The position numbers were made by a program, and so were the translations under genes. Under the pieces are notes generated by a model. That model did not search any database. It was not told where the DNA came from and saw only the letters and a list, made by a program, of their open reading frames with translations. Shown here piece by piece: positions 2,791 through 53,375 of a stretch of 57,920 bases of DNA; the stretch's first letter is position 1; every line of letters begins with the position of its first letter. Location: the NCBI GenBank assembly GCA_009837285.1, contig VXTU01000114.1:1-57920 (forward strand), given 5' to 3'. Origin of the DNA: Chloroflexota bacterium (lineage in GTDB: Bacteria; Chloroflexota; Dehalococcoidia; UBA2979).

Positions 2791-3552
2791 TCAGCCCGAC
2801 CGCACGGCCACGTGCAGCGCCACCGTCCCAAGGCCGAACGTCCGCACACGCTCGCCCTCGAACCCCGACGCTTCGAGTCGCCCCGACAGCTCGTCGACGG
2901 ACATGAAGTGCTCCGCCGAGACCGGCAGGTAGGAGTAGGCGTCGCTGTGCCCGCCGAACATGCGCCCCAGTAGCGGCACGACGCGCGCCAGGTGGAAGCG
3001 CTTGAACGGCGCCAGCAGGCCACCCTCGATGCGCGGGATGTCCAGCACCGCCAGCCGCCCGCCCGGCCGCAACACGCGGTGCGCCTCCGCCAGCAACCCG
3101 CCGACATCCGGCACGTTGCGCATCACGAACGCCGCGCACCATGCGTCGGCCGCTCCGTCTGCGAGCGGGAGCCGCAGCCCGTCGCCGTGCACGAACGCGA
3201 CGCTCGCAGCGCCTCGCTCCGCCGCCTTGCGGCGCGCGATCGGGAGCATGGGCGCCGCGAAGTCCACGCCGAGCACGGCGCCCGCGCCGGCCCGCGCGCA
3301 CGCCAGCGAGAGGTCGCCCGTCCCGCACCCCACGTCGACCACGCGGTCGCCGGGGCGCACGAGGGCGCGCGCGGTGGCAGTGCGCCAGGCGTGGTGGCGG
3401 CCACCCGTCATGATGGTGTTCATGAGGTCGTAGCGCCCGGCGATCTCGCCAAAGATGCGCCGCACGTACCCCGCACGGTCCGCCGAGGGGTCGTACAGCC
3501 CTTCGACGCCCGCGGGCGCGTCTCGTCGCTCAGGTGGAGGTGTGCCGCTCAC
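2791..3552 (-). CDS. ubiE: Demethylmenaquinone/ubiquinone C-methyltransferase (UbiE/MenG family)
   Basis: RIFGEIAGRYDLMN, SAM motif VVDVGCGTGD, C-terminal YSYL...S motif; 253 aa. Confidence 0.85.
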   Translation of the reverse strand: MSGTPPPERRDAPAGVEGLYDPSADRAGYVRRIFGEIAGRYDLMNTIMTGGRHHAWRTATARALVRPGDRVVDVGCGTGDLSLACARAGAGAVLGVDFAAPMLPIARRKAAERGAASVAFVHGDGLRLPLADGAADAWCAAFVMRNVPDVGGLLAEAHRVLRPGGRLAVLDIPRIEGGLLAPFKRFHLARVVPLLGRMFGGHSDAYSYLPVSAEHFMSVDELSGRLEASGFEGERVRTFGLGTVALHVAVRSG

Positions 3553-3608
3553 GCGTCGAGCCTAACGGGTCGGCGGCGCTATCGGCAGTACGCTTCAAGG
3601 GGATTCAC

Positions 3609-4684
3609 GTGCGTAGTACGCATGTGCTGACGTATACTGCGCTGCGCCAGACGGCACTCCCCGCCGGAAGCACCATCGCAGCGATGCCGCTTCGCCTCGT
3701 CCCCTGGTCCCCCGAGTACGGCAGCGGCATCGAGGCCGAGACCGACGCTGCCGCAGACGACGGCGCGTCGCTGGTCGAGGCCGACTTCGAGGGCTCGTGG
3801 CGTGCGATCCGCCCGGCCGCCGCAGCGCACCCAGCTGTCCAGATCGTCGACGGCGTCCGACGCGTCGAGGCCCACGCGATAGACGACGGCAGCGACGGGA
3901 CCATGGCCTTCGGCCTCTTCGGGTCGTACGCGGTGGGCGTCGTGCGCTGCGAAGGGCAGCGCGCGCACATCCCCGACAGCGAGCGCGTGCTGCGCGTACG
4001 CCGCCGCTACCTGCAGACGGGCGGCGAGGCCGACGACCGCACCGTCGCTGTCGGCGACGCCGAACTGCACTTCCGCGCCGAGCTCCCCGCTGGAGCTCAG
4101 GCGCCCGCCGACCTCATCGCCGCGCTCAACCGGCTGATGTTGGACGAAGAAGCGCGGCTCGCCGAGGAACTGTCGGAGGACGACTCGACGCTCACGATCG
4201 TGGACGGCCCGCTCCGGTTGCGCGCGGCGGGTCCCCGCGTGGTCGGCTACGTGAAGCGCACGCACCGCTGGTACATCGGACCGGACCGGTTCGGCCTGCT
4301 CGGCACGCTCGCGGTGGGGGAGCGCACGCCGCTGTTCCGCATCGCCGAGAACGACGGGCAGCGCGACCGGCTCGCGTGGTACCTGCGCCTCGCCGACATG
4401 GGCACGCAGTATCACCAGCTGTCGGGCATCGTGCGCCTGGAGACGCTGGGTACGCTGCCACCGAGGGATGCGGGCGCGCTCGCCGACCAGACGGCGCTGG
4501 TGCTGCCGCGACTGGCGTCCTCGCCGATCCGCGACCCTCGCGCTCCGCAGAACCTCACCCCCGTCGGCGCGCTCGAGCAGTTGCTGACACGTCGGCTCGG
4601 CGACCGGCTGTGGATCCGACGCCGCATCGCGGCGGCGCTCGAACCCGCGTCCACCACGTTCGCGATCGCCGCGGAGGCCTCGTG

Positions 4685-4685
<1 letters not shown>
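3609..4685 (+). CDS. nurA: NurA-like 5'-3' nuclease
   Basis: NurA-type motifs IVDGVRRVE and TLTIVDGPLRL, plus VGYVKRTH. GTG at 3609 is preceded by AGGGGA; an alternative ATG lies at 3684. The stop overlaps the herA start (TGATG). Confidence 0.6.
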
Positions 4686-6426
<1,741 letters not shown>

Positions 6427-6430
<4 letters not shown>

Positions 6431-7626
6431 GGCTGCTCCACACCGCCGACTGGCACGTCGGCCGCACCATCCGCGGCCGCAGCCGCGTACCGGAGTTCGA
6501 GCGTGTGCTCGCCGAGGTGATCGACATCGCCCGTCAGGAGCAGGTCGAGGCGATGCTCGTCTGCGGGGACATCTGGGACCACCACGCACCGTCGGCGGAG
6601 TCGGACCGGCTCGTGTTCGAGGCGCTGCGCGAGTGCATCGGCCACGGCATCCAGGTGGTGCTGCTGGCCGGCAACCACGACAACCCGCGCAAGCTCAAGG
6701 CGCTCGGCCTGCTCTCGGAGCTGCTCGGCGTGCAGACGCAGTGGGAGGTGCGACGGCCGAACGCCGGTGGCGTGCTCGCCATCGAGGGCCGCGACCACGT
6801 AGCACGCATCGCCGCCGTGCCGTTCATCACCGAGGGCCGCTACGTGGACGCGGCGGCAATCATGGGCCTGCAGGAGGACTGGGTCAGCGCCTACGCCGAC
6901 GGCGTCGCCGAGATCCTGCGTGCCGCATCCGCCACCTTCGACGCGACCACGGTCAACATCCTCGCCACGCACATCTTTGTCGACAACGCGCGCATCGCCC
7001 GCGTCGACGGCTCCGAGCGCAAGCTCCACATCGGCCAGACCTACGGCGTGACCGCAGCCAGCCTGCCCTCGACGCCCCAGTACATCGCGCTCGGCCACGT
7101 GCACGAGCCGCAGGACATCCTCGACGCGCCGGTGCCGACGGCGTACAGCGGCTCGCTGCTCCAGCTCGACTTCGGCGAACGTGGCCAGCAGAAGGTCGTG
7201 CGCATCATCGACGCCGAGCCGGGCAAACCGGTGATCCCGACCAGCATTGAACTCACGAAGGGCCGCCCGCTGGCCGAGCTGCGCGGCACGCTCGACGAGG
7301 TGCTCGCCCAGGCCGACGACGCGGGAGACGCGCACTTGCGCGTCCGCCTCGATGTCGAGCGCCCCGAGCCGGGCATCGCGGAGCGCGTGCGCGAGGCGCT
7401 GCCCAACGCGGTCGACGTGCAGCTCGAGTACGAAGCGCCCGAGGACGAGGAGAGCGTCGAGGCCATCGGGCACCTCAGCGCCGCCGAGCTGTTCACGCGC
7501 TACTACCAGTCCACGCACGGCGCCGACCCCGCGCCGGCGCTCATCGGGCTGTTCGAGGAGCTGCTCGCCGAGGGCGACGAGGCGCGCGCGGCGGAGGTCG
7601 CCGGCGAGACGGCGGCGGTCCCGTGA
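6427..7626 (+). CDS. sbcD: Exonuclease SbcD / Mre11-family phosphoesterase
   Basis: Motifs LLHTADWHVG, CGDIWDH, LAGNHD, ATH and GHVH. GTG 6427 overlaps the herA stop (GTGA). Confidence 0.9.
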
Positions 7627-10600
7627 GGCCGCTTCGCCTCGAGGTGCGCGGCTTCACCTCGTTCCGGGAGCCTGCCACGCTCGACTTCGAGCATCGGCGG
7701 CTCTTCGCCATCACCGGGCCGACAGGCGCCGGCAAGTCATCGCTCCTCGACGCGATGACGTGGGCGCTGTACGGGCAGGTGCCGCGCGTCGGCCGCGAGA
7801 CCCGCCAGCTCATCACGCACGGCGCGAAGGCGATGGCCGTCCAGTTCGAGTTCAGCGTGCGTGGCGACCGCTACCGCGTCAGCCGCCAGGCGCCCGGCAA
7901 CCTCGGCGCGCGGTTGGAGCAGCAGCGCGCCGACGGCGCGTGGGAGCCGCTCGAGGACCGCGCGCGCGAGGTCACTCGCCGTATCGAGGACCTCCTCGGG
8001 CTCGATTTCGCCACGTTCACCAAGACCGTGCTGCTCCCGCAGGGAGCCTTCGACACGTTCCTGCGCGGCGACGAGCCGCAGCGCCGCGACATCCTCACGC
8101 GCCTGCTCGGCCTCGAGCGTTACGTTCAGGCAGGGCAGGCGGCGAACAGATCGGCGTCTAATTCCCGCCGCGCCGCTGAGGTGCTGCGTGAGGAGATCGA
8201 GCGCCTCGATGCTGCAACGCCCGAAGCGATTGCCGGGTTGGAGCGCGGGCACGCCGCCCTGGCGGCCCACTTCGAGGTGCTGGACGCTCGCACGGGCCTG
8301 CTCGTCGCACTCGCTGACCATGCCCGCGCGACTATCGAGGCCGAGTCAGCAGCGGGTCGCGCCGCAACCGCGAGCGCCGAGGCGACCCGGGACGCGGAGT
8401 CCGCCCGTGACGCCCTCGCCCGCGACGAGCAGGGCCGCGCAGCGTCGCGCGACGAGCGCGACCGCCTCGACGCGGATCGGGCCGCCGTCGGCTACGACGA
8501 GGCCGAACACCGCCGCCTCGAACGCGAGACGCAGATGCTCGACCAGCGCGAGGCCGCGCGGCGCGCGGTCGACGCAGCAGAGGCGGAGCAGTGCCGCGCG
8601 GTCGAGGCCGCTGAGCAGGCTGCCGAGGAGGCAGCCCGGCTGGGCGGCGAGACCGACAGCGCGGAGAGAGCGCGCGCGCAGGCCGAGGTCGCGAGCCGAA
8701 CCGCCCTCGACACCCTCGCCGCAGCCGCAGCCGCGGCACTCGCCACCGAGCGCGAGTTGGGCGAGGCGGCGAATGCCGCCGACGACCGGCGCGTGTCGGC
8801 AGAGCTTGCCGCCGCCGAACGCGACGAGGAGGCACGTCGCCTCACAGCACTCGACGAGCGGCTGAGCGCACGGCAGGAGGTCCTCGCGGCCGCCGGGCGC
8901 GAGCACGACCAGGCGACCGCGGCGCAGACGGCGGCTCAGGGTGCCTCGGACGCCGCAAGCGAGCGGCTGGGCGAGGCGGAGGAACGACGCGCCGAGCGCG
9001 CCGCAGCGCTCGACCTGGCGCAGCGGCAGGACGCCGCGATGACGCTGCGCCAGGGACTGCAGCCGGGTGACCCATGCCCCGTCTGCGGCGAGCCCATCAG
9101 TCACATCGACCCGCACATCCCGCCCGAGCTCGACGCAGCCCGTACAGCCCTCGATGCCGCCGAGGCGTCGCTGCGCCATGCACGGAACGAGCAGTCGGCA
9201 GGAGCAACAACCCTCGGCGCAGCCGAGGCGGACGCTACACGTGCGGCGTCCGCAGTCGAACGCGCGAACGCCGACCTCGACGCCATCCGCGCCGAGGCCG
9301 CGCAGTCCGGTGTCGACGCCGACGCGCTCGCTAAGGCGGCCGAGAAGGCGTCGGTCGCCGCCGAGGCCGAGCGCGCTCGGGCCGCCGCGGCGGTGGCGGA
9401 GCGCGACCGTGCAGGGGGCGCCGCGCGCAGACTCGGCATGCTCCGCGCATCGATCGGCGACGCCCTCGCCGGCCTCGACGCGGCTGAGGCGGAGCCCGGC
9501 GAGCCCGAGGGCGTGCACGCCGACCTCGACGGAGCGATCGAGGAGCACCGGGCAGCGAGCGCCGAGGCTGCTGCAGCGTCGGAACGCGCTCGCACTGCCG
9601 CCGAGCGCTCGCGTGAGGCCCATGCGAACGTCCAGCGCGCCGGCGAGCGGCGCAGGCGCGCGGACGCCGAGTTGGACCGCGCGCGCGAGCACCTCTCCTC
9701 GCTCGGCGACGCGGATGTCGACGCCGATGCGGTGCGAGCCGCCCTCACCGCAACGCAACAGCAGGCCGAGCGCCACCGCAAGATCGAGGCCGCCCTCGCC
9801 ACCGCCGCGCAGGAGCTGGCCGCGGCCGACGCGCGTGTCGAGGCCGCCGGCGCGGCGCTCGCACGCGCGGATGCCACCTCGACGCGCCGGGCTGACGAGG
9901 CGACCGGGGCGCTCGCCCTGGCCGAAGACGCGCGCCGGGGTCTCGCCGAGGCCTGGGCTGCTGCCGCCGTCGAGGGTGCGCCCGACGCCACGAGAGCCCC
10001 TCGGCTCCTCGACGAGCACCGCGTGGCGGTCGCCGCGTGCGAGCGCGAACGTGACCTCGCCGCGCAGCGACTGGAGACCGCGCGCGCCGACGCCGAGCGC
10101 GCCGAGCAGATGCGCGCCGACGCCGCGACGTACGACGGCAACGCGGAGCTCGCCGACGACCTCGCCCACGAGCTGCGGCGCGACCGCTTCATCGCCTACG
10201 TGCAGCGCGAGGCCATGTACCTCCTCGCCGCCGACGCGGGCGAGCGGCTGCTCGCGCTGTCGAGTGGGCGCTACCGCCTGGTCGTGCGCGACGAGGCGTT
10301 CTGGGTCGTCGACGGCTTCAACGGCGACGAGCGGCGGTCGGTGAAGACGCTCTCCGGCGGCGAGACGTTCCTCGCCAGCCTCGCGCTCGCCCTCGCGCTG
10401 TCCGAGCGGCTGCCCGAGATCGCCGGGCGCGGCGGGGCGATGTCGCTCGAGTCGCTGTTCCTCGACGAGGGCTTCGGTGCGCTCGACCAGGACTCGCTCG
10501 ACACGGCCATCGGCGGCCTCGAGACGCTCGCGGGCGGCCAGCGCCTCGTGGGCGTGATCTCGCACATCCCCGAGGTCGCCGAGCGCCTCCCTGACCGCGT

Positions 10601-10694
10601 CGAGGTGGTCAAGAACGGAGCGACCAGCCGCCTCGTCACACCGGGCGCCGTCCCCGAGGCCGGGGTCGAGCCCTCGCTGACCGTCACGCCGTAA
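7623..10694 (+). CDS. sbcC: Exonuclease SbcC / Rad50-family SMC-like ATPase
   Basis: Walker [10 protein letters not shown], long Ala/Glu/Arg coiled coil, zinc hook CPVCGEP, signature LSGGETF, Walker [10 protein letters not shown]-loop ISHI. The start overlaps the sbcD stop (GTGA). Confidence 0.9.
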
Positions 10695-17006: not shown

Positions 17007-19322
17007 CTAGCCCTGGTCCTCCAGCATCTCGAGGATGCGCTGCGGCGACGCGGGGATCTCAGTCGGCCGCACGCCGATGGCGTCGCGGATCGCGTTCGTC
17101 ACAGCGGCCAGAGGCGGGATGATGCCGACTTCGCCGACGCCTCGCACCCCGTACGGGTGGCCGGGGTTCGGCACCTCGATGATGAGCGCGTCGATCATCG
17201 GGAGGTCGAGCGCCGTCGGCATGCGGTAGTCGAGCAGCGTCGAGTTGACCATGTTGCCGTCGTCGTTGAACAGGTACTCCTCGGTGAGTGCCATCCCGGC
17301 GCCCTGCGCGGCGCCGCCCTGGATCTGGCCCTCGACGTAATCGCGGTGGATCGCCGTGCCGACGTCCTGCGCGGCCGTGTAGCGGAGGATGTCCACCTTG
17401 CCGGTCTCCGGGTCGACCTCGACGTCCACGACGTGCGTTGCGAACGCCGGGCCGGCCGTCTCCGGCGAGACGTCGGCGCGCGCCTGGATGAGGCCGCCCG
17501 TCGCCTGCAGCTGCCCGGCGAGCTCGGTCAGGCTCATCTCGTGGTCGTCCGGGCCGCGCAGCACGGCGTCGTCGCCGTAGCTCACGTCGTCGGGCTCGCA
17601 CTCCCAGATCAGGGCCGTGCGCTCCTCAAGCTTGCGACGCAGCTCCATCGCCGTCTCGTAGACGGCCCAGCCGCCCGCGAAGGTGGTGCGGCTGCCGACG
17701 GTCGGCAGCGTGTAGCCGACCGAGTCGGTGTTCACGGTCTGCGGCACCACGTCCTCGTACGCCACGCCCATCGCCTCGGCGAACTGCATCGCCAGCGACG
17801 CGCGGCTGCCGCCGATGTCGGCGGAGCCGATGTTGAGGCTCAGCCGTCCGTCGGCGTTGACCGCCGCGAACGCCGAGGACTCCATGCCGACGTTGAACCA
17901 GAAGCCGGTCGCCACGCCGCGGCCGCGGTTCTCGCCGCTGAGCTCGGAGCGGTAGTGCTCCGAGTCCCGGACCGCCTCGAGGCATGCGACGTTGCCGATG
18001 GGGCCGAACGCGACGCCGTCGACGCGGCGGCCACCCTCGACCATCGCGTTCTTGAGCCGCAGCTCGACGGGATCGATGTCCAGCTCGACCGCGAGCTCGT
18101 CAACGAGCGACTCGACTGCCCACTCGGCCGCGGGCGCCGCCGGGGCGCGGTACGCCTGGACGCGCGGCTTGTTGACCACCACGTCCCAGCCGACCGTGCG
18201 GAAGGTGTCGAGGTTGTAGGGGGCGGTGGCGCACATCGCGCCCGCGCTGAACGCCGAGCCCGGGTAGGCGCCGGACTCGTAGGCGCCCTCCCAGTCCATC
18301 GCCGTGATGGTGCCGTCGCGCTTCGCGCCGATGCGCATGCGCATGTGGGTCCCGGAGGTGGGGCCGGTGCCCTCGAACACCTCGTCGCGGCCCATGTACA
18401 TCTTGACGGGGCGGTGGCCGCTCTCCCGCGAGAGCATGGCGGCCAGGGGCTCCATGTAGACCGAGGTCTTTCCGCCGAAGCCGCCGCCGATCTCGACCGG
18501 GTTCACGCGGATCTTCGAGACGGGGTAGCTCAGCAGCTGCGAGAGCTGGTCGCGCACGCCGAAGTACGCCTGGGTGCTGACCCAGACGTTGATCTGGCCG
18601 TCCTCGCTCCACAGCGCTGTGCCGTTGTGCGGCTCGATGTAGCCCTGGTGGTACATAGGCGTGTCGAACTCGCGCTCGAGGACGACATCCGCCTCGGCGA
18701 AGCCGGCGTCGAGGTCGCCCTGCGCGAACTCGATGCGCTTCGCGACGTTGGAGGGGCGGTTGCCGTACTCCTCGGAGCCCTCAGCGCCGAAGAAGCCGAA
18801 GACCTGCTCGGTCGTGATGCTCTCGTGGATGACCGGCGCGTCTTCCGCCATCGCGTACTGCACGTCCATCACGGCCTCGAGCACCTCGTACTCGACGTCG
18901 ATGAGGTCGAGGGCGTCCTCGGCGACGTGGGGGTCGGTCGCGGCGACGGCGGCCACGGCGTGGCCGCGGTAGAGCGCCTTGTCGGAGGCGAGGACGTTGT
19001 CGAGCACCCAGCGCGCGCTGGCGGTCTCGCCTTCGCCCATGAGCAGCTCGGTGTCGTCCTGCCGCGGGAAGTCCTCGTTCGTGATGACCGCCGTCACGCC
19101 CGGCAGCGCCGCGGCCTTCGACGTGTCGATCGAGACAATGCGCGCGTGCGCGTGCGGGCTGCGCAGCACCCGGCCGTAGAGCAGCCGCGGCATCCGAATG
19201 TCCGCGCCGTAGATGGCGCGCCCGTTGACCTTGTCCACTCCGTCGGGCCGTACCGGGCTGCCGCCCACGACCTTGTATTCCCGTTCACCAACAACCACGC
19301 GGTCACTCCTTGCGTGCGCCAC
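17007..19322 (-). CDS. Molybdopterin-binding large subunit of the xanthine dehydrogenase / aldehyde oxidase / CO-dehydrogenase family
   Basis: 771 aa; the GGGFGGK motif and hammerhead plus MoCo-binding architecture are recognisable. Confidence 0.85.
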   Translation of the reverse strand: MAHARSDRVVVGEREYKVVGGSPVRPDGVDKVNGRAIYGADIRMPRLLYGRVLRSPHAHARIVSIDTSKAAALPGVTAVITNEDFPRQDDTELLMGEGETASARWVLDNVLASDKALYRGHAVAAVAATDPHVAEDALDLIDVEYEVLEAVMDVQYAMAEDAPVIHESITTEQVFGFFGAEGSEEYGNRPSNVAKRIEFAQGDLDAGFAEADVVLEREFDTPMYHQGYIEPHNGTALWSEDGQINVWVSTQAYFGVRDQLSQLLSYPVSKIRVNPVEIGGGFGGKTSVYMEPLAAMLSRESGHRPVKMYMGRDEVFEGTGPTSGTHMRMRIGAKRDGTITAMDWEGAYESGAYPGSAFSAGAMCATAPYNLDTFRTVGWDVVVNKPRVQAYRAPAAPAAEWAVESLVDELAVELDIDPVELRLKNAMVEGGRRVDGVAFGPIGNVACLEAVRDSEHYRSELSGENRGRGVATGFWFNVGMESSAFAAVNADGRLSLNIGSADIGGSRASLAMQFAEAMGVAYEDVVPQTVNTDSVGYTLPTVGSRTTFAGGWAVYETAMELRRKLEERTALIWECEPDDVSYGDDAVLRGPDDHEMSLTELAGQLQATGGLIQARADVSPETAGPAFATHVVDVEVDPETGKVDILRYTAAQDVGTAIHRDYVEGQIQGGAAQGAGMALTEEYLFNDDGNMVNSTLLDYRMPTALDLPMIDALIIEVPNPGHPYGVRGVGEVGIIPPLAAVTNAIRDAIGVRPTEIPASPQRILEMLEDQG

Positions 19323-19542: not shown

Positions 19543-19950
19543 CTACGCCGACTTCGTCAGCTCCATGAGTACGAAGTTCGACGAGAGCGGGTGCACCCAG
19601 ATCGCTTCGCTGTTCGGGACGCGGGTAACGCGGCCGCCGCCGGCTTCGATCTGCTGGGCGAACGCCTCCGGGTCATCGACCTCGCAGACGAGCTGGTAGA
19701 TGCCCTCGCCGTGCGGGTTGAGCGGGTTCACGCGGTCCTGCATCAGGCGGTAGATCGGGCCGTTCTCGTCCACCGGCGAGATGAGGTGCAGCGCCGTCTC
19801 ACCGTTGTAGCCCAGCGCCACGAACCGGAAGTTGCCGATCGAGTTGTGGGCGGGCTCGCCGAGCGGCTCCATGCCGAAGCGCGCCTTGTGGTTCTCGACG
19901 GCCTCGTCGAGGTCGTGCACCGCTACTGTGTGGTACTTCACTTTGAACAT
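19543..19950 (-). CDS. VOC (glyoxalase/bleomycin-resistance/methylmalonyl-CoA-epimerase-like) family protein
   Basis: MFKVKYHTVAVHDLDEAV... 135 aa; ATG 19950 follows AGAGGAA. The longer ORF-track version (to 20079) overlaps the divergent gene. Confidence 0.8.
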   Translation of the reverse strand: MFKVKYHTVAVHDLDEAVENHKARFGMEPLGEPAHNSIGNFRFVALGYNGETALHLISPVDENGPIYRLMQDRVNPLNPHGEGIYQLVCEVDDPEAFAQQIEAGGGRVTRVPNSEAIWVHPLSSNFVLMELTKSA

Positions 19951-20047
19951 GGTGGGTTCCTCTCTACGCAGCGGGGCGTAGTCTACGGGACGCACGCGGC
20001 ACGGGCTCGTGGCCCCGGCGCCCGCACGCCGCACGAGGAGCGATAGC

Positions 20048-21139
20048 ATGACCACGCTGCTGACCCACTCGGGCCCCACGGAGCTCGACGCACGTACGGA
20101 CGGCGATGGCCTCTGGCTCGATGTCGCCGAGGCCGAGCGCGCGACGGGCTGGGAGCTGAAGCCGGAAGGCTTCTGCTACGGCCCCGTCTGCGTCCCCGTC
20201 CCCTATGGCCGCGAGGCGGAGTTCGTCGCGCCCGGCTCGGTCAACGTCGCCGGCTTCTGGCGGCACATGGGCAAGCCGGTACTCCACGACGACGCTCGCG
20301 AGGTCTGGATGCTCGGCGAGGACGCGACCACGCGCTCCTACGAGATGCTGTCGCTGGAGGCCCCGGACTTCGCGTTGCCCGACCTCGACGGCACCATCCA
20401 CCGCCTGTCCGACTACCGCGGGAAGCGCGTCCTGCTCGTGACGTGGGCCTCGTGGTGAGGCTGCCGCTTTGACCTGCCCGTGTGGCAGCGCCTCTACAAC
20501 GAGCTGGCCGAGCACGACTTCCTCGTGATCACCGTGGCTATGGAAAGCCGCGGCGCGGACGCCGCGCGCGAGTGGATCGAGGCGGCCGAGCCGGCCCACC
20601 CGAGCCTCATCGACCGTGACCACGTGATCTCCGAGCTTTACAACATGGTGAACGTCCCGATGGCCGTGTGGATCGACGAGGAGGGCCGCATCGTCCGGCC
20701 CGCCGAGTACGCCGGCACCAACGACGCGTTCCGCGGCCAGGACCGCGAGACCGGCGCGTGGTCCGACGATGCGTTCCAGGAGATGCGACGCGCGCGTCTC
20801 ATCTACATGGACGCGATCCGGGACTGGGCCCGCAACGGCGCCGCCAGCGAGTTCGCGTGGGACGCCGCCGGAGCCCGCGACCGCCTGCGGCTGCCCTCGG
20901 AAGAGACGGCGCTCGCCAACGCCCACTTCCGCATCGGCCAGCACTTGCGGCAACGCGGGCAGGTCGAGGAAGGGGACCGCTTCCTGGAGGAGGCGAAGCG
21001 GCTCGCGCCGGACAACTGGAACATCTGGCGGCAGGCCTGGAACCTGGAAGACGCCCCCGTGAGCGTGTTCTGGGAGCGCGTCGACGCCCTCGGCGACCAA
21101 CGTTACAGCCTGCCGATCGACATGCCAGGTATCACGTAA
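20048..21139 (+). CDS. Thioredoxin-fold (TlpA/ResA/redoxin-like) protein with a C-terminal helical-repeat region, interrupted by one in-frame TGA (20456-20458) at the active-site position; candidate selenoprotein, otherwise a pseudogene
   Basis: ORFs 20009-20458 and 20480-21139 are in the same frame. The read-through sequence is APDFALPDLDGTIHRLSDYRGKRVLLVTWASW-[TGA]-GCRFDLP...VPMAVWIDEEGRIV. ATG 20048 follows GAGGAG. Confidence 0.5.
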
Positions 21140-24578: not shown

Positions 24579-24680
24579 GCCGGTCGTCGGGCCCTGTCTC
24601 GTCTCCCTGTTGTCGTTAGACACTCGGTGGGCGACGGATCACGATGGCACTGGCCTACTACCGAGGAGGTCGTCCTGGCG

Positions 24681-24962
24681 ATGCAGAAGCCACCCCATCC
24701 GGGCGAAGTCGTGCGTGCCGAATGCCTCGAGCCCCTCGGGTTGAGCGTGACGCGGGCGGCCGAGGGGTTGGGGGTGACCCGCCAGGCGCTCTCCGACCTC
24801 GTGAACGGACACGCCGGCATCTCGGTGGAGATGGCCATCCGCCTGTCCAGGGCGTTCGGTTCTTCCCCTGAGACGTGGCTCGGGATGCAGATGGCGTACG
24901 ACCTCTGGCAGGCCCGGGGACGCGCGGACTCGCTCACCGTGGAGCGGTTCGCACCGGCGTAG
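24681..24962 (+). CDS. higA: HigA-family antitoxin (XRE-type HTH), with no adjacent toxin gene
   Basis: HPGEVVRAECLEPLGLSVTRAAEGLGVTRQALSDLVNGHAGISVEMAIRLSRAFGSSPETWLGMQ; GAGGAGG lies upstream of ATG 24681. Confidence 0.8.
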   Translation: MQKPPHPGEVVRAECLEPLGLSVTRAAEGLGVTRQALSDLVNGHAGISVEMAIRLSRAFGSSPETWLGMQMAYDLWQARGRADSLTVERFAPA

Positions 24963-27399: not shown

Positions 27400-27475
27400 T
27401 GGCGCCCCCGGGAGGATTCGAACCTCCGGCCTTCGGATTAGAAGTCCGCTGCTCTGTCCACTGAGCTACAGGGGC
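27400..27475 (-). tRNA. tRNA-Arg (anticodon TCT), CCA encoded
   Basis: Reverse complement folds as GCCCCTG-TA-GCTC-AGTGGACA-GAGC-A-GCGGA-CTTCTAA-TCCGA-AGGCC-GGAGG-TTCGAAT-CCTCC-CGGGGGC-G-CCA; 76 nt. Confidence 0.9.
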
Positions 27476-27623
27476 GCGTCCGCTTGCACGGTTCATCGTA
27501 CCTCGCGGCACCAACGCGCTCCGCCACCCGGCAAGCTACACCCAGGGCCGAAGGGCATCAGCCGAGGGTATTCACCTGGTATCGGGCGCGCTCCCGGAAT
27601 CCGTCGTGGCGTCTCGCACGGTG

Positions 27624-27941
27624 TTACGACAGGCGCGCGTTGAGTAGCCGGTTGAGGCTCACGCCCTCCTCGGCAGCTTGCGTCGTGAGTTCGCGGTGCA
27701 TCTCGGGCGGGACCCGGAGCAGAATGCGTCCGGAGTATGGACGGGTCGCGAGGGGCTCGGGGACCGCTTCGCCGGCCGATTGCATGTCCTGCACGGCTTC
27801 GCCCACCGCCTGCCTGATGCCGGCGAACGCATCCTCTGGTTCCGGCGCGAGCCAGCTCAGGAGCGGGAACTCCAGGCATAGGCCCACGTATTCCGCATCC
27901 TCTTCCGACCAGGTAACGCGGTAGGTGTAGCGATCACTCAT
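27624..27941 (-). CDS. hicB: HicB-family antitoxin
   Basis: YRVTWSEEDAEYVGLCLEFP N-terminal HicB fold and a C-terminal RHH-like RILLRVPPEMHRELTTQAAEEGVSLNRLL; overlaps hicA by 8 nt. Confidence 0.8.
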   Translation of the reverse strand: MSDRYTYRVTWSEEDAEYVGLCLEFPLLSWLAPEPEDAFAGIRQAVGEAVQDMQSAGEAVPEPLATRPYSGRILLRVPPEMHRELTTQAAEEGVSLNRLLNARLS

Positions 27942-28185
27942 CGCCGGCCTCCAGTCTGTCGATGGCCTTGAGTACCTGTCTCACCTGATACGCCTTGGCC
28001 CTGCCCCTGTCGTTCTGGATGTTGACTCTCGGGTCTCCGGCCCAGGGCGTGCGGTAGACCCAGTGACTCCCGCCCGATCGTCGTGGCGACCCGAAGTAGT
28101 CGTCGCAGACCTTCACGAGATCCGTGAAACGCACGCCTCGCGCGTTGGCGCGCATCTGCTGGACGATCGCCTCAACGCTGGCCAC
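27934..28185 (-). CDS. hicA: HicA-family mRNA interferase toxin
   Basis: 83 aa with a GGSHWVY motif typical of HicA/YcfA. The start is GTG, directly behind an AT-rich promoter-like stretch. Confidence 0.8.
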   Translation of the reverse strand: MASVEAIVQQMRANARGVRFTDLVKVCDDYFGSPRRSGGSHWVYRTPWAGDPRVNIQNDRGRAKAYQVRQVLKAIDRLEAGDE

Positions 28186-28498: not shown

Positions 28499-30838
28499 AT
28501 GCGTCCGGACAAGGGCTTGATTCGCGCGACGCTCGTTGCGGCTGTCGCGCTGCTTTCGTCTGTGGCTGCTCCCTCCTCGGCACAGTCCGAGAACGTGCTG
28601 TCGAATGGAGGCTTCGAGGACGGCGCCTCTGGGTGGTTGACGTCCGGGACCAATGCCACCCTGACCGTCGACGAGACGGACCCCGTGCACTCCGGCTCCG
28701 CGGCCGGGCGCCTCACGGCCACGGCAGCCGGCGCCATTTCCACCGCGTCGCAGTACTGGTGGGCGCCCATCGACGCCCTCGAGCAGTACACGCTCAGCAT
28801 CGAGCTGCAGGCCGACGACCCCGGCATCAGCAACGCTGCCGCGACACTCGAGGTGGTGGACGGCGATGGCGAGGTGCTGGCAAGCCGGGGAGGGTCGCCC
28901 GAGACTGGCTCCGGGTGGCTGTCCATCACAACGGAGCCGGTACTCGCGCCCGCTTCAGCTGAGTACGCGCGGATCGTCGTGAGCGCCGCCGCGGCGAGCG
29001 CGGGAGCGGTCCTCCACATCGACTCGGCCGCCGTCACCGTCGCCGACCCGGAGCCTCAACCCACGGAGACGGCCACGGCCACCGCTACCGCGACAGCCAC
29101 GCCAACCGCGACGGCAACCGCGACCGCCCCACCACCCCCATCGCCTGAGCCAACGGTGCCCGTGCCGCCGGTCGATGTGCCGAAGCCGACACTCCGCTCC
29201 GTCGCGAACCGCCCCGAACCCCGCCCGACGTTCCCGGCACGGCTGATCGCCGAGCCGCCGCCCCGGAGGGTGGCGCCGCTGCTGCTGCGCAACGCCGACT
29301 TCGAGTCGCCCGACGGCTTCGATGGCTGGCACGCCCGTGGCGGCGAGGGGCGCGTGGAGGAGTCCACGCCCGGGTCTTCCGTCGCCGTGCTGACCTCGCG
29401 GACCACCGCGACGAAGTGGATCTATCAGGTAGTGCCCGTCACCCCGGGTGAGTGGTATCAGGCTGGGGCATGGCTGCAGCCGCGCGACGACGCCGAACTC
29501 GGCCTCGTGCGCATCGCCTGGTACGCCTCTGGCGACGGCAGCGGGCGGCAACTCGCCACGGTCGACTCGTCTCCCGCGCCCGGCGATGCTGCCGACTTTG
29601 TAGAGGTGATGACCGGAGCCGTGCGGGCGCCTCCCACGGCGCGAAGCGCCCAGGTGCGGCTGATGCTCCGCCCGCGGAGCAGCGCGCTCGCCAGCCTCAT
29701 CGCCGACGATGCCTACTTCGAGCCGACCTCGGCGCCTGCCCCGGAACCGCCCGAGGCGCCGCCACCGACTGAGACGCCCGTGGCTTCCCCGACGGCCATC
29801 GCCGCTCCCTCTCCGGCGGCCACGCCGTCGCCGGAAGCTATAGCGTCGCCGGTGTCCTCCGCGGCCCCGGCGACTGCCACGCCTGCCGCCAGCCCGGAGC
29901 CCACGGCACGTCCAAGTCGGAACACGCCGCCCGAACCGGTTGCGAGCCCGACGCCCGAGTCGACACCCCCGTCCGCCCCGCAAGTCGTGCGCAGCGTGGC
30001 GCTGGCCCCTGCGCTGCCCCCGACTCGCCCGGCCGCGACGATCAGCGCCACCGCGCCGGTACTCACGGCGTTCGACATCCCGCTGCGCATCACGGCACTC
30101 CTCCCCGACCCGATCGAACCCGGCCCCGACGCGCGGTTCGAGTGGATCGAGGTGACGAACGTCGGTCGGTCGCCGCTCCGTATCCGGGGCTTTGAGCTGC
30201 GCGACAACGCCTCTTCCCTCGCCCTCCCGGACGTTGAGTTGCCCGCGGGGGGTTCGATCATGGTGGCGGGCGAATCGGCCGACCTCGGTCACGTCGTCGC
30301 CCTGCGCGTGGAAGGCGGGCTCTTCAACGGCCTCGCCAACGCGGGCGACCGCGTCGTGCTGCTGACCCCGGAAGGGGCAGTGGTCGACTCGCTGTCGTAT
30401 GGGGACGACGCGAGCAGATTCGGCCCACCCCTCGCGGCCCCCGGCAGCGGCGAGCAGCTCCGACGGCGCTTCGCTGCGAACGGGACGCTGATTGGCGTGG
30501 AGGTTGGGCCTGGCGGTGGCGGGGAGGCGGCAGGAATGGCTGTAGCGACGGCAGATCCCGAACCCACAGTCGAGGCCCGCGCTGCCGCCCCTCTCTTGAG
30601 CCCGACTGTCGAGACAAGGGCGCCTGCGGCAACCACGGCCTCCGGCCCCGCTCCAACATCGGCGACGGGGGCGGTTGCCCGGCCCGAGCTCACCTCCACG
30701 GAGCCGAACCTCGAGCGGGAGGCCGCCGGGAGCGGTGAGGGGGTGAACCGCTCGGCGTGGATCGCGCTCGCCTCGATCGCTCTCGGTGCGCTTGCGGGTG
30801 TGGGTGCGTTCCGGCTGCGCGAACTGCTGGCGGTGTAG
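28499..30838 (+). CDS. Secreted, C-terminally membrane-anchored multidomain protein: two CBM_4_9-like modules, Pro/Thr/Ala linkers and a lamin-tail (LTD) domain
   Basis: Signal peptide ...SSVAAPSSAQS. NGGFEDGASGW and NADFESPDGFDGW module starts. LTD-like FEWIEVTNVG...GFELRD...NAGDRVVLLTPEGAVVDSLSYGDD. Terminal TM segment WIALASIALGALAGVGAF. Confidence 0.7.
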   Translation: MRPDKGLIRATLVAAVALLSSVAAPSSAQSENVLSNGGFEDGASGWLTSGTNATLTVDETDPVHSGSAAGRLTATAAGAISTASQYWWAPIDALEQYTLSIELQADDPGISNAAATLEVVDGDGEVLASRGGSPETGSGWLSITTEPVLAPASAEYARIVVSAAAASAGAVLHIDSAAVTVADPEPQPTETATATATATATPTATATATAPPPPSPEPTVPVPPVDVPKPTLRSVANRPEPRPTFPARLIAEPPPRRVAPLLLRNADFESPDGFDGWHARGGEGRVEESTPGSSVAVLTSRTTATKWIYQVVPVTPGEWYQAGAWLQPRDDAELGLVRIAWYASGDGSGRQLATVDSSPAPGDAADFVEVMTGAVRAPPTARSAQVRLMLRPRSSALASLIADDAYFEPTSAPAPEPPEAPPPTETPVASPTAIAAPSPAATPSPEAIASPVSSAAPATATPAASPEPTARPSRNTPPEPVASPTPESTPPSAPQVVRSVALAPALPPTRPAATISATAPVLTAFDIPLRITALLPDPIEPGPDARFEWIEVTNVGRSPLRIRGFELRDNASSLALPDVELPAGGSIMVAGESADLGHVVALRVEGGLFNGLANAGDRVVLLTPEGAVVDSLSYGDDASRFGPPLAAPGSGEQLRRRFAANGTLIGVEVGPGGGGEAAGMAVATADPEPTVEARAAAPLLSPTVETRAPAATTASGPAPTSATGAVARPELTSTEPNLEREAAGSGEGVNRSAWIALASIALGALAGVGAFRLRELLAV
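29069..29128 (+). repeat. Thr-Ala dipeptide tract (6-bp ACN-GCN tandem repeat) inside the LTD protein gene
   Basis: Encodes TATATATATATPTATATATA. Confidence 0.8.
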
Positions 30839-34353: not shown

Positions 34354-34767
34354 CTACATCTCCTCGGCCTGCAGCAGGTCGAAGCCGACCGTCACGAACA
34401 GCATCGGCAGCACCACGTCGATGAAGATCCAGACCTGCGCGTCGGGGGTCTGGGCGCCCGCCGACCACTCGATCTGGAGCGCGTTCCACAGGAACAGCAG
34501 CGTGAGCGCCACGGCGACGAAGAACTTCGTGTTGGCCACGAGGTACGCGCGCAGGTCCGACTCGCCGTCCGCGGCCTGCTTCGCCATGAAGGTCACGTAG
34601 AGCGCGATCGGGAGGCCGCCGGCCATCAGCCAGTCGAGCACGATCCAGGCGATCGGAACGCCCTCACCGGCCTCCCACTCGTAGAGCAAGGGATCGAGTA
34701 CGAAGTGGACCGCCACGGCCGCTCCGACGACTGCGAGGTATACCCCCGCCAGACGCTTCACCATCAT
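34354..34767 (-). CDS. Small integral membrane protein, tandem paralogue of 33909-34313
   Basis: 137 aa; the ATG-ATG start at 34767/34764 is preceded by GGAGGAGGG. The ORF-track extension to 35289 is discarded. Confidence 0.6.
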   Translation of the reverse strand: MMVKRLAGVYLAVVGAAVAVHFVLDPLLYEWEAGEGVPIAWIVLDWLMAGGLPIALYVTFMAKQAADGESDLRAYLVANTKFFVAVALTLLFLWNALQIEWSAGAQTPDAQVWIFIDVVLPMLFVTVGFDLLQAEEM

Positions 34768-34899
34768 CGTGATCAGCCCTCCTCCGGACATGCGACTGCG
34801 AATCAGCTGGCCGCAGTCTACAGAGTTTCTTGCTGGTTCATTAACGGTTCGCGCCCCCGTTGCCGCCGGTGTCCGCCCGGTCGTCTGGCCACTCCCGCC

Positions 34900-35028
34900 G
34901 ACGCGTGCCAGCGTGCGGCCTCGGCGTAGTGATCGGGGAAGTCCGGTGCAAGTCCGGCGCTGTCCCGCAACCGTGAGTCGCCCCGCCCCCAAAAAAGGCG
35001 AGGTGGCAAGCCAGATGACCCACGCGTT
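34900..35028 (+). promoter_or_regulatory. Cobalamin (B12) riboswitch
   Basis: Core GGGAAGTCCGGTGCAAGTCCGGCGCTGTCCCGCAACCGTGAG (34934-34976) matches the conserved cobalamin aptamer core. B12-box-like AAGCCAGATGACC at 35008-35020. A P1 helix is possible between acgcgtg (34901-34907) and cacgcgt (35021-35027). The RBS (35000-35006) and ATG (35015) lie inside the element. Confidence 0.8.
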
Positions 35029-35248
35029 CCCGATCCATCGATGGCTGCTGAGGCCGCTGCTCGTCGCGTTCGTGCTGATCGCGGCGTTCGCCGTGCTCGC
35101 CTGCACTGGCGACGATGACGACGAGGCGGCCGCACCTGAAACGACCGCTCCGGCTCCTACTGCGGCGCTGGCGAGTACAGCGGGACGCTCGAGGACGGTC
35201 GGCGGGCGATCGTCGTCGTGTCTCGCGGCAGTGAACCGCGGACCGTAA
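35015..35248 (+). CDS. Short lipoprotein-like ORF (77 codons) directly controlled by the B12 riboswitch; possibly the truncated or frameshifted 5' end of a binding-protein gene
   Basis: MTHAFPIHRWLLRPLLVAFVLIAAFAVLAC-TGDDDDEAAAPE...: lipobox plus an Asp-rich linker like the two family-5 binding proteins here. GAGGTGG lies 8 nt upstream. The C-terminal 30 aa look non-native. Confidence 0.35.
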   Translation: MTHAFPIHRWLLRPLLVAFVLIAAFAVLACTGDDDDEAAAPETTAPAPTAALASTAGRSRTVGGRSSSCLAAVNRGP

Positions 35249-35278
35249 TCACTGTGATGCTCGCACGCGAGGAGTAGG

Positions 35279-35533
35279 ATGGTCGGCATGAGAGTTCGCT
35301 ACGACTCCGACGCCGATGTGGTGTTCGTCGTACTGCGCGAACCCCGAGGGGGTGAGAGCGGCGGCGAGCGCATTGACGAGCGCCGCTACGCCCATTTCGA
35401 CCAGGCGGATCGCCTGTTCGCCTATGAGTTCCTGTCCGTGAGCAAGGGTGTTTCGCTCGCTGGCATCGAGCCGCAGGATGCCACCCTGATCCGGGAGGCC
35501 ATCGACTCAGTAGCGCGGCTCGCGGTCGCCTGA
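35279..35533 (+). CDS. DUF2283 domain protein
   Basis: MRVRYDSDADVVFVVL... pattern typical of DUF2283; 84 aa; GAGGAG upstream. Confidence 0.7.
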   Translation: MVGMRVRYDSDADVVFVVLREPRGGESGGERIDERRYAHFDQADRLFAYEFLSVSKGVSLAGIEPQDATLIREAIDSVARLAVA

Positions 35534-38145: not shown

Positions 38146-38348
38146 GTGGCACCTCGTTCCGCCGCGTTGTGGGGGGAGCGTAGGAGGGCGGGGGCGAGGG
38201 ATGCAAGGCATTGGTCAGCTACGCGACACTGGCACCGTGATACGTGAAGTTGTGGATCTCCTACGTCAGAAATGACTTGTACTACGCGATATGTCGTGCT
38301 ACCTTCCCAACATCCCGAATGTGGTCGGAGCGCCGAAGGAGGCAACCC

Positions 38349-39512: not shown

Positions 39513-39537
39513 CCGCCCGCATCTGAGCGTCAGCGCC

Positions 39538-39882
39538 GTGGCAATCGACGCCAACATTAGCCTGGAGACGCGGGCCCTCGTACTCGATCTGTATGGGTCG
39601 ACGTGCCAACTGTGCGCCCGTGGTCCCGGGGATCCCGATCGCGTCGATCAGAGTCGGCTTACGCAGCTCGTTGTCGCCCTCGCGGACGAGAGCCTCCCCG
39701 GAGGCGACGACGCCCGCTGCAACCTCAATGTCGTGTGCACGGCCTGCGAGACGAGCCCACCAACGGAGGCGGCGTCGCCAGGCCTCGTGGCACTGATGGG
39801 CGAACTCCGGCGTGCCACGATCGCTGACCAGCGCAGAGCGCTGGAGTGGCTGCAACGCCGAGCCCAGCAGGGACGGGCTTGA
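39538..39882 (+). CDS. Small CxxC...CxxC protein resembling an HNH (beta-beta-alpha-Me) finger that lacks both catalytic His residues
   Basis: STCQLC ... LVVALADESLPGGDDARCNLNVVCTACE follows the HNH layout (CxxC ... [H]H ... GG.D...NL..C..C[H]) with A/L and E in the His positions. A GTG start at 39538 is assumed. The stop overlaps the next ATG (TGATG). Confidence 0.4.
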   Translation: MAIDANISLETRALVLDLYGSTCQLCARGPGDPDRVDQSRLTQLVVALADESLPGGDDARCNLNVVCTACETSPPTEAASPGLVALMGELRRATIADQRRALEWLQRRAQQGRA

Positions 39883-45779: not shown

Positions 45780-45782
45780 CAC

Positions 45783-52294: not shown

Positions 52295-52375
52295 GGTGCG
52301 CTCCCAGTGTGCGTTAACGTTCGGTCGTGATGCCCCATCATAACGACGCCGCGCCGTATGGGCGGCGGCAGTCGG

Positions 52376-53262: not shown

Positions 53263-53375
53263 GGTGCGCTCTCGGCACGCGTGCACAGTCGTCAGCGCGG
53301 CCCCGGCACGATGACGCTGCACCGGCAGCCTTGCGCCGGTGGTCGGCTACTGCCTCACCGGGCTAGCATCCAGCG

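Follow-up and report, generated by a model that had tools for sequence, protein, structure and literature searches.

Selenoproteins whose redox centre reads U-G-C were described in 2008, when Zhang and Gladyshev catalogued the 'Prx-like (UGC-containing)' family with 46 Sec forms and 855 Cys homologues (PMC2398784, Table 2). The family has also been treated in reviews (PMC9312934, PMC13188914), and reviews set the UGC, UxxC and TxxU subfamilies apart because of the spacing of their motifs. Additionally, there is an NCBIfam equivalog model, NF041054 ('WAxxUGC_long'), named "ResA-like WAxxUGC motif-containing protein"; a literature search for the literal 'WAxxUGC' gave no match, and in papers the family goes by 'UGC-containing'. 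Its members are termed 'predicted' in the literature, where we found no report of selenium shown experimentally in any of them.

The locus analysed here lies on the forward strand of a stretch of 57,920 nucleotides, which we call the window. Positions 20048-21139 very probably constitute one gene from sponge-associated Dehalococcoidia, whose product would be a selenoprotein with three domains, located in the cytoplasm and belonging to the 'UGC-containing Prx-like / ResA-like WAxxUGC' family. There is hardly any doubt that the TGA within its frame encodes selenocysteine in a thioredoxin-fold redox protein. A sponge metagenome run contains the window at 100%. The gene runs from the ATG at 20048 to the TAA that ends at 21139 (363 codons plus the TAA), and the translation of the window shows that the TGA at 20456-20458 is the sole interruption of this frame. 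As the original prediction had stated, two open reading frames, one from a GTG at 20009 and the other from a GTG at 20480, share one frame and are split by this TGA, which is in frame with both. The read-through peptide given there was reproduced exactly (YRGKRVLLVTWASW before the stop and GCRFDLPVWQRLYNE after it), and the complete product has 363 residues and contains W-A-S-W-U-G-C-R. Since the frame is open directly after the TGA, the GTG at 20480, which lies 21 nt past the stop, is merely the first start-like codon. The true start is likely the ATG at 20048, as suggested by a Shine-Dalgarno-like GAGGAG at 20035-20040 (read from the sequence, 7 nt 5′ of the ATG and presumably functional) and by the alignment of 25 Cys homologues, which match over their full length beginning at the Met of this codon. 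Gene calling has broken this gene and its relatives from public MAGs into two pieces, of 135-140 and 217-223 residues, that should be merged into one selenoprotein.

The assignment to the family comes from several comparisons. When the protein was compared with NF041054, with U entered as C, it scored 327.4 bits, above the cut-off of 300 (E 1.2e-97), and residues 24-337 aligned with profile positions 8-323 of 354. The motif W-A-x-x-U-G-C, with its U encoded by TGA, is present as W-A-S-W-[TGA]-G-C at 20444-20464. In addition, a BLASTP comparison with a GOS read labelled '#Prx-like UGC-containing' in Dataset S1 of PMC2398784 gave 37% identity over 264 residues (E 2e-61), and the U of that read is aligned to the TGA of the window.

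Three domains may be distinguished in the product. The central one (residues 104-216, 20357-20695) is a thioredoxin-fold domain of the AhpC-TSA/Redoxin type, similar to TlpA and ResA, recognised by Pfam (PF00578, 1.1e-16, 61.3 bits; PF08534, 4.3e-12), by phmmer against the PDB (TlpA/ResA-type proteins at 1e-10 to 1e-15) and by Foldseek. In the PDB alignment, the TGA falls on the first Cys of CxxC and is followed by a one-residue gap, WASWCG-CRFDLP being set against WASWCSICLASLP and WATWCPPCREEIP. The structure was modelled on a Cys homologue (P0004) that is 56% identical to the window protein (AF2, pLDDT 95.8); its equivalent residue, Cys134, stands immediately before helix 135-153 (alpha-1), and the model superimposes on ResA (1st9/1su9) with an rmsd of 1.5-1.9 A over about 116 residues and a TM score (target) of 0.74-0.79. 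Pfam, NCBIfam, the PDB alignment and the structure comparison all support the earlier claim that the TGA occupies the position of the redox-active Cys in a thioredoxin-fold protein.

The N-terminal domain, of about 100 residues (20048-20356), has no Pfam match (residues 1-103) and carries neither a signal peptide nor a membrane anchor. Its first residues, MTTLLTHSGPTELDARTDGDGLWLD, include no hydrophobic segment as judged by eye, and the thioredoxin fold comes after a conserved, soluble domain about 100 residues long. In the alignment with the 25 Cys homologues, the invariant columns of this domain are W23, G41, C43, C48 and P50, the two cysteines (codons 20174-20176 and 20189-20191) forming a C-x4-C pair. 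The domain is confidently predicted in the P0004 model and has no match among solved structures. The C-terminal domain (residues ~230-363, 20735-21136) is all-helical and TPR-like, with a weak Pfam match to TPR_2 at residues 290-323; helices span residues 236-345 in the P0004 model, and W260, W324, R328 and Q329 are invariant.

The TGA codon stands for residue 137, placed where helix alpha-1 starts and expected to be the one that attacks. Its likely resolving partner is Cys139, encoded by the TGC at 20462-20464 and invariant in all homologues; the codon for this cysteine lies between the TGA and the GTG at which gene callers restart and, consequently, it is translated only upon read-through of the UGA. 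The original prediction had proposed aligning homologues at the TGA column, and the alignment revealed a Sec/Cys pair: across the window and 88 related loci, TGA is found at 34 of the 89 orthologous sites, and TGC or TGT at the other 55. In fact, all of the approximately 100 full-length database homologues have Cys at this column (WASW-C-GC). The U-G-C spacing, about which it had been asked whether it was a family trait or a sign of decay, is a family trait, as the family is named for it ('WAxxUGC_long', 'Prx-like (UGC-containing)', PMC2398784) and the homologues read C-G-C. The TGA forms come from Chloroflexota, Alpha- and Gammaproteobacteria, Deltaproteobacteria/Myxococcota, Binatia, Rokubacteria, Acidobacteria and Actinomycetota, and a neighbour-joining tree requires at least five switches between Sec and Cys. 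An 89%-identical orthologue with the same TGA is present on the complete chromosomes OZ244720.1 and OZ242017.1.

A candidate apical hairpin of a bacterial SECIS follows the UGA at 20474-20488, with the arms CUGCC (20474-20478) and GGCAG (20484-20488) and the loop CGUGU (20479-20483), overlapping the codons for Leu-Pro-Val-Trp-Gln. It starts 15 nt, and its loop 20 nt, after the UGA, so that the 5-bp stem with a GU-containing loop that had been predicted about 20 nt past this codon is indeed there; this stem, preferred in the original prediction, is also the one kept in every TGA form. The five pairs of the consensus YUGCC-NGKNU-GGCAG are found in 30 of 30 distinct TGA forms, whereas only 14 of 55 Cys forms have them (Fisher p 1.4e-12, in a test that ignores phylogenetic relatedness among sequences that are mutually related and separated by at least five switches). 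Of the 23 Cys forms that share the L-P-x-W-Q peptide, just 12 retain the hairpin. A similar difference is observed in the codons themselves, as Gln is encoded by CAG in 30/30 TGA forms versus 21/31 Cys forms, and Leu by YUG in 30/30 versus 26/39. The synonymous sites of the hairpin are constrained only in the UGA forms. The contrast between Sec and Cys forms offers a clean natural control for the SECIS of this family, which is kept in all UGA forms and decayed in most Cys forms.

The 5-bp hairpin is also the consensus structure obtained with RNAalifold, and its loop is always N-G-[U/G]-N-U in the TGA forms. Four of the stem pairs are invariant and one alternates between C-G and U-G, while a flanking sixth pair covaries between C-G and U-A (CG in 10 forms, UA in 5, other combinations in 15) and is a C.C mismatch in the window's own clade. 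With so little variation in the stem, direct support from covariation comes down to one wobble change and one flanking pair. The geometry agrees with the bSECIS model in loop size (5 nt; range 3-9), stem length (5 bp; 4-16) and spacing (20 nt; 16-37), and a G occupies loop position 2, within the first two positions where the model expects it. Nevertheless, a loosely defined geometry of this type follows 521 of the 1138 TGA triplets (46%) in this window of 70% G+C; being so common by chance, it is necessary and not discriminating. Additionally, the fold of 20450-20520 is no better than that of shuffled sequence (z-score -0.27). Together with the background of 46%, this led us to reject single-sequence folding as evidence, and the signal comes from the comparison with relatives.

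The apical hairpin alone has a predicted energy of -6.0 to -6.7 kcal/mol, the bSECIS limit being -7.5. When a lower stem, GAGGC (20457-20461) with GCCUC (20490-20494), is added, the values range from -8.1 to -12.6 kcal/mol, the latter when folding was constrained so that the apical hairpin was retained. This possible clade-specific extension (20457-20494) appears weakly, in the constrained fold, and its role is doubtful because it is conserved in the closest relatives only. The original prediction had also pointed to a competing 8-bp stem, GCUGCCGC/GUGGCAGC, which does form as the minimum free energy structure of the single sequence but is not conserved. We rejected it as a functional element, since it relies on GGC-UGC-CGC and breaks in the GGA, UGU and CGU variants; its 14-nt loop begins with UU, and it was not recovered by RNAalifold. 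Rfam gave no match at the site, to a SECIS family or to any other, at gathering thresholds or at E values up to 10; it has no models for bacterial SECIS elements of this type.

These comparative signals require that the codon be translated and that the hairpin be relevant, and they do not by themselves separate selenocysteine from another residue. Cysteine-inserting systems with tRNA-Sec-like molecules exist. It could then be proposed that recoding of the UGA yields a residue other than Sec, or other residues besides it, either through insertion of Cys by a tRNA-Sec-like tRNA with a UCA anticodon and a SelB-like factor or through low-level read-through by a near-cognate Trp or Cys tRNA. The search for the Sec machinery leaves room for this proposal: ARAGORN found no tRNA-Sec in the 57.9-kb window or in the 88 related loci, Pfam detected no selA, selB or selD among 40 of the 46 genes called in the window, and no Sec-decoding gene was found in 1.44 Mb of flanks of the related loci, where a tblastn search with an approximate E. 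coli SelD probe gave no match. This search says little, as it covered a small part of each genome. By contrast, the family is catalogued as selenoproteins with Sec/Cys pairs across many phyla, and large selenoproteomes, of 46-49 predicted selenoproteins, have been reported in other Dehalococcoidia MAGs (PMC13326102). Moreover, if the residue were Cys, a TGC could provide it at no recoding cost, which is what happens in 55 of the 89 orthologues. Hence, we consider the insertion of a residue other than Sec quite unlikely. A reassignment of UGA throughout the genome is ruled out, since TGA is the terminator of 19 of the 46 called genes of the window.

In the surroundings of the gene, the only other coding-like candidate in the window for a selenoprotein gene, with an in-frame TGA at 40722, was discarded, as it corresponds to two adjacent genes in the same frame, one without known identity followed by a class-III aminotransferase. 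No further selenoprotein gene was found in the flanks of 12 Chloroflexota relatives, and conservation of neighbouring genes does not reach past the close Dehalococcoidia clade, the most frequent neighbour being present at 14 of the 89 loci.

If the UGA were instead a terminator, the locus would be either a gene broken by a nonsense mutation or a true pair of split genes (20048-20458 and 20480-21139). Such a reading would agree with the annotation of two open reading frames in every close relative and with the GTG that follows the stop at 21 nt. Nevertheless, gene callers place the break always at the TGA, and the halves are never conserved as separate genes; their existence as separate genes was what the original prediction had named as speaking against selenocysteine. 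Thirty-three other loci, from different phyla and with protein identities as low as ~35-45%, have the same TGA, which would not be expected of a decaying pseudogene. Compared with the closest relatives, dN/dS is 0.11-0.21 upstream and 0.10-0.13 downstream of the TGA (at dS 0.35-0.5), values that indicate purifying selection on either side. From the TGA to the GTG there are seven codons, which encode the invariant G-C-R-x-D-L-P and show almost only synonymous variation. A split at this point would also separate strand beta-1 from helix alpha-1 within the thioredoxin fold, with the loss of the catalytic residue. As for other disabling mutations in relatives, which had likewise been named as a possible sign of decay, none was observed except in one relative (L001), which has lost 2 nt some 40 nt before the TGA. 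This deletion falls within a CGCG run, the contig is from long reads, and an intact, near-identical copy (L002) comes from the same sample. The broken or split gene is, thus, largely refuted, and we regard it as very improbable.

Metagenome assemblies do contain single-base errors, but the idea that the TGA is a miscalled TGC or TGT deserves practically no credit, since contigs from four independent public runs all show this codon, even in strains whose copy of the gene has 37 and 58 substitutions. The TGA also recurs in 33 related loci that were assembled independently, and a sponge metatranscriptome contig covering 20157-20681 leaves the TGA region unchanged.

Taking the UGA as a selenocysteine codon, a mechanism may be proposed by analogy with the E. 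coli paradigm. In this model, the UGA at 20456-20458 would be decoded as selenocysteine when the hairpin at 20474-20488, acting as the SECIS, recruits SelB with Sec-tRNA(Sec) while the codon is in the ribosomal A site; decoding in the source organism would, then, be SelB-dependent. Sec137, at the N-terminus of helix alpha-1 of the TlpA/ResA-like fold, would be the attacking nucleophile, and Cys139, two residues on, would resolve the intermediate as a selenenylsulfide in a short U-G-C ring. The N-terminal domain, with its C-x4-C pair, and the helical C-terminal domain would probably bind, or relay to, the substrate or the reductant. Any function beyond that of a cytoplasmic selenol/thiol oxidoreductase would have to be inferred. 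It is conceivable, but rather unlikely, that U-G-C and C-x4-C form an internal selenol/thiol relay with a chemistry unlike that of TlpA-type reductases and peroxiredoxins (e.g., a strained selenenylsulfide oxidase or isomerase), or that the SECIS-dependent UGA of this symbiont is read as a residue other than Sec.

The candidate hairpin resembles the SECIS of E. coli fdhF and fdnG and the bSECIS model (PMC13188914, Fig. 2) in being part of the coding sequence, a short distance 3′ of the UGA, and in having a G followed by U or G at loop positions 2-3. By contrast, its conserved stem is much shorter (5-6 bp), the element alone is weaker than the -7.5 limit, and no conserved bulged U is seen.

Among redoxins, the protein shares with ResA, TlpA, CcmG/DsbE and StoA a thioredoxin fold of the same subtype and a redox-active residue at the start of helix alpha-1. 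However, its U-G-C centre has one residue fewer than their C-x-x-C active site; those proteins are secreted or anchored in the membrane, whereas the window protein has no hydrophobic N-terminus; and, in comparison with them, it has additional domains, an N-terminal one of ~100 residues and a helical C-terminal one of ~130, with no structural match. Its NCBIfam scores are far below the cut-offs for ResA (66.2/170) and TlpA (48.8/230) and also below those for StoA (42.3/210) and DsbE (20.4/123). With the UxxC 'Prx-like thiol:disulfide oxidoreductase' and the TxxU peroxiredoxin selenoproteins it has in common the Pfam AhpC-TSA domain and a thioredoxin fold with Sec in its redox centre, but the spacing differs, being UGC here. 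The peroxidatic motif P-x3-T-x2-C(U) is also absent: in V-T-W-A-S-W-U the Thr stands 5 residues, and not 3, before the U, and no Pro occurs in register further upstream. The match to AhpC-TSA (61.3 bits) consequently reflects a shared fold only.

By contrast, there is no essential difference from the 'Prx-like (UGC-containing)' family, with which the protein shares the motif W-A-S-W-U-G-C-R-x-D-[LV]-P-x-W-Q, the AhpC-TSA/Redoxin domain in a long form with a helical C-terminal region, and many Cys (CGC) homologues. We found no description in the literature of the YUGCC-NGKNU-GGCAG consensus or of the invariant N-terminal C-x4-C pair, which are details within the same family. As existing catalogues cover the family, which was described in 2008 and has an NCBI-curated model, together with its motif and its mechanism of recoding, the finding is correct but ordinary and opens no new question; the protein is one more member, which adds an example from sponge-associated Dehalococcoidia to a family that was first met in ocean metagenomes.

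The TGA at 20456-20458 is very probably a genuine selenocysteine (Sec) codon; the in-frame TGA in a thioredoxin-fold gene was confirmed, and the interpretation given to it in the original prediction is supported. A single frame runs from the stop preceding the GTG at 20009 to the TAA at 21137-21139, and this TGA is its sole interruption. Translation bears out that the ORFs 20009-20458 and 20480-21139 share that frame and are parted by the TGA, and they are listed separately only because the ORF tool opens a new entry at the first codon resembling a start. Alignment with homologues places the true start at the ATG at 20048, with GAGGAG 7 nt 5′ of it, and the predicted read-through product has 363 residues, containing ...KRVLLVTWASW-U-GCRFDLPVWQRLYNE... 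The TGA itself is real: it is free of changes or indels in gene-covering contigs from four independent public runs, two of which represent strains whose copies of the gene carry 37 and 58 substitutions. Additionally, a sponge metatranscriptome contig of 93% identity covers 20157-20681 and is unchanged over 20450-20521. The window, whose G+C content is 70%, is present in its entirety in one sponge metagenome run, and its nearest relatives are Chloroflexi/Dehalococcoidia MAGs (89-92% protein identity).

An interrupted frame might also reflect a pseudogene or two truly separate genes. However, the seven codons that separate the TGA from the GTG specify an invariant G-C-R-x-D-L-P and, among orthologues with TGA at this column (TGA forms), vary almost only synonymously (GGC/GGA/GGG, TGC/TGT, CGC/CGT/CGG, GAC/GAT, CTG/TTG, CCC/CCA/CCG). 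Against the five closest Dehalococcoidia orthologues (dS 0.35-0.5), dN/dS is 0.11-0.21 upstream of the TGA and 0.10-0.13 downstream. Together with the ordinary use of TGA as a stop, these observations rule out both a pseudogene and a split gene. A reassigned genetic code is rejected, as TGA is the normal stop of 19 of the 46 called genes in the window. In a related locus, L001 (ENA ERZ21829562 ctg258066l, a 3.5-Mb long-read contig), two nucleotides are missing from a CGCG run at about 9935-9945, some 40 nt 5′ of the TGA, which puts the N-terminal half of the gene out of frame; an assembly error or a minor variant is the probable cause, because a second contig of the same sample (L002) holds an intact, near-identical copy.

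The homologues also point to Sec. A protein search gave 2903 matches, and, among the 120 listed, nearly all of the approximately 100 full-length homologues (about 360-375 residues, 43-57% identity) carry WASW-C-G-C-R. The closest of the matches listed (63-87% identity) are fragments, 208-224 residues long, starting just after the TGA, and their contigs are all alike: 21 nt before the C-terminal piece, and in its frame, a piece of 135-140 residues closes with W-TGA. A scan with one genome per species yielded 80 loci which, with eight contig loci and the window, make 89 sites. Cys and Sec, the two states that the original prediction envisaged at this column, are both found, with TGA at 34 sites and TGC/TGT at 55 (the Cys forms). 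TGA forms occur in Chloroflexota, Alpha-, Gamma- and Deltaproteobacteria/Myxococcota, Binatia, Rokubacteria, Acidobacteria and Actinomycetota, and the two states are intermingled in a rough neighbour-joining tree, where parsimony requires at least five switches.

The gene belongs to a selenoprotein family that has already been described and curated. When U was replaced by C, the protein matched NCBIfam NF041054 (“WAxxUGC_long, ResA-like WAxxUGC motif-containing protein”, an equivalog) over its full length (E 1.2e-97, 327.4 bits; curated cut-off 300 bits), and fell far below the cut-offs of the ResA, TlpA, StoA and DsbE NCBIfam models. Pfam AhpC-TSA (1.1e-16) and Redoxin cover residues 104-216, and there is a weak TPR match near the C-terminus. 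In GOS data, a “Prx-like (UGC-containing)” family (pfam00578, motif UGC) comprised 46 selenoproteins and 855 Cys homologues (PMC2398784, Table 2), and the name “UGC-containing Prx-like protein” is used in PMC9312934. Dataset S1 of the 2008 paper holds reads such as ...KKVLLLTWASWUGCRLDVPVWQSIYEEL... (PMC2398784), one of which aligns with the window protein at 37% identity over 264 residues (E 2e-61), its U falling on the TGA. The spacing of U-G-C, one residue short of CxxC and at first a possible sign of decay, is therefore a family trait, since the family definition, the published motif and these reads share it.

Folded alone, the TGA region does not surpass shuffled sequence (z -0.27), and of all the TGA triplets that the window contains, 46% have a hairpin of bSECIS-like geometry 3′ of them; consequently, the evidence for a hairpin is comparative. 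The 5-bp hairpin proposed originally (20474-20488) was recovered exactly as the RNAalifold consensus, and (C/U)UGCC-N-G-(U/G)-N-U-GGCAG, starting 15 nt past the UGA and encoding Leu-Pro-(Val/Gly)-Trp-Gln, is present in all 30 distinct TGA-form sequences. Four pairs are invariant and one is C-G or U-G; a sixth, flanking pair is C-G in 10 sequences, U-A in five and unpaired in 15, being C.C in the clade of the window. By contrast, the five pairs are kept in only 14 of 55 Cys forms (Fisher p 1.4e-12) and in 12 of the 23 that share the L-P-x-W-Q peptide. The Gln codon is CAG in 30/30 TGA forms versus 21/31 Cys forms and the Leu codon YUG in 30/30 versus 26/39, so that fixation of synonymous stem sites is limited to TGA forms. 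The published bSECIS model is matched in loop (5 nt, G at position 2), stem (5 bp) and spacing (20 nt), while its limit of -7.5 kcal/mol is reached only with a lower stem, GAGGC 20457-20461/GCCUC 20490-20494, that is not conserved more widely. The competing 8-bp stem also proposed does form as the MFE structure here, but it is tied to the codons GGC-UGC-CGC and does not survive in other TGA forms. Two MAGs labelled “Rhizobium sp. Q54” differ in state: L014 (about 1031) has Cys (TGC) and has lost the hairpin (CTA CCC ATA TGG CAA), and L015 (about 10409) has Sec (TGA), a naturally occurring case of either SECIS decay following replacement of Sec by Cys or gain in the opposite direction. Short contigs of two public runs (X3 and X23), from the same sponge metagenomes/metatranscriptome, match only a core of about 40 nt (20449-20488, W-UGA-GCRFDLPVWQ), and their flanks diverge (...GAAGTCTACGACGAGCTCAAGGAC...); thus, other sponge organisms or paralogues share the TGA-plus-hairpin core at the nucleotide level.

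No selA, selB, selD or tRNA-Sec was found in the 57.9-kb window or within 1.44 Mb of related-locus flanks. Indirect support for Sec decoding comes from BSepDB, where Dehalococcoidia MAGs, at 46-49 selenoproteins, are counted among the bacteria with the richest selenoproteomes (PMC13326102). The window yielded no second selenoprotein gene, and an in-frame TGA candidate at 40722 proved to be two adjacent genes. In practice, the annotation is corrected from two ORFs to one gene, and the SECIS core of the UGC-containing family is clearly described.

Among the loci compared, the gene has no conserved neighbour outside the close Dehalococcoidia clade. Divergently upstream lie a small glyoxalase/VOC-family gene (19543-19950, minus strand) and a molybdopterin-dependent aldehyde oxidase/xanthine dehydrogenase large subunit (17007-19322, minus), and downstream an SBP_bac_5 and an MFS gene, an arrangement shared by the close Dehalococcoidia relatives that have the TGA form and not kept in the family at large. 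Elsewhere in the window, a cobalamin riboswitch aptamer (RF00174; 34886-35041, plus; 39.2 bits, gathering score 31.5) is overlapped on the opposite strand by a probably spurious ORF without Pfam match (34354-35289); downstream, the plus strand carries a small ORF and genes for a short-chain dehydrogenase, a TPR protein and an alpha/beta hydrolase, a set not typically under B12 control. The region 27400-28185 holds tRNA-Arg(TCT) (27400-27475) adjoining a HicB-family antitoxin gene (27624-27941, minus) and an overlapping upstream ORF without Pfam match (27934-28185, minus), possibly its HicA partner. An HTH_3 gene (24627-24962) is the counterpart of a HigB/HTH_3 pair in relatives, its toxin gene not being called here. 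A DndB-like gene (PF14072, 5.6e-34) followed by a 292-residue ORF without Pfam match (38244-40724, plus), with no other dnd genes seen nearby, may be what is left of a DNA-modification or defence module, or a variant of one. A DNA-repair cluster (3534-10694, plus) comprises a NurA-like nuclease (weak, 4e-06), SbcD (6370-7626) and a 1023-residue SbcC/Rad50-like ATPase (7623-10694). A Pro/Ala/Thr-rich ORF of 779 residues (28499-30838, plus), not called by a GC3-based gene filter, carries a signal-like segment at its N-terminus and a hydrophobic anchor at its C-terminus. At 44379-48026 (plus), a 747-residue VWA-domain protein is encoded after a MoxR-like AAA ATPase, and 51401-53278 (minus) holds a tandem pair of glyoxalase/VOC paralogues, each about 300 residues long.

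The structure was modelled on P0004, a Cys-containing homologue (56% identical; 38 aligned sequences; pLDDT 95.8, pTM 0.92). In this model, strand 124-130 (KVLLVTW) leads through A-S-W-C into helix 135-153, and because the helix begins at the Gly right after this Cys, the Sec-equivalent residue is predicted at the N-terminus of helix alpha-1, the place of the attacking Cys in thioredoxin-fold enzymes. Sec137 would attack the substrate and Cys139 would resolve the intermediate to a selenenylsulfide. Foldseek against the PDB matched the Trx domain alone, to ResA, TlpA, StoA and related proteins (rmsd 1.5-1.9 A over about 116 residues, TM (query) 0.30), and found no solved counterpart for the N-terminal ~100 residues, with invariant C43 and C48 (C-x4-C), W23, G41 and P50, or for the helical C-terminal ~130, which carry W260, W324, R328 and Q329; these two domains may serve in partner binding or electron relay. 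Since no hydrophobic segment was seen by eye at its N-terminus, the window protein is probably cytoplasmic, in contrast to ResA and TlpA, which are not.
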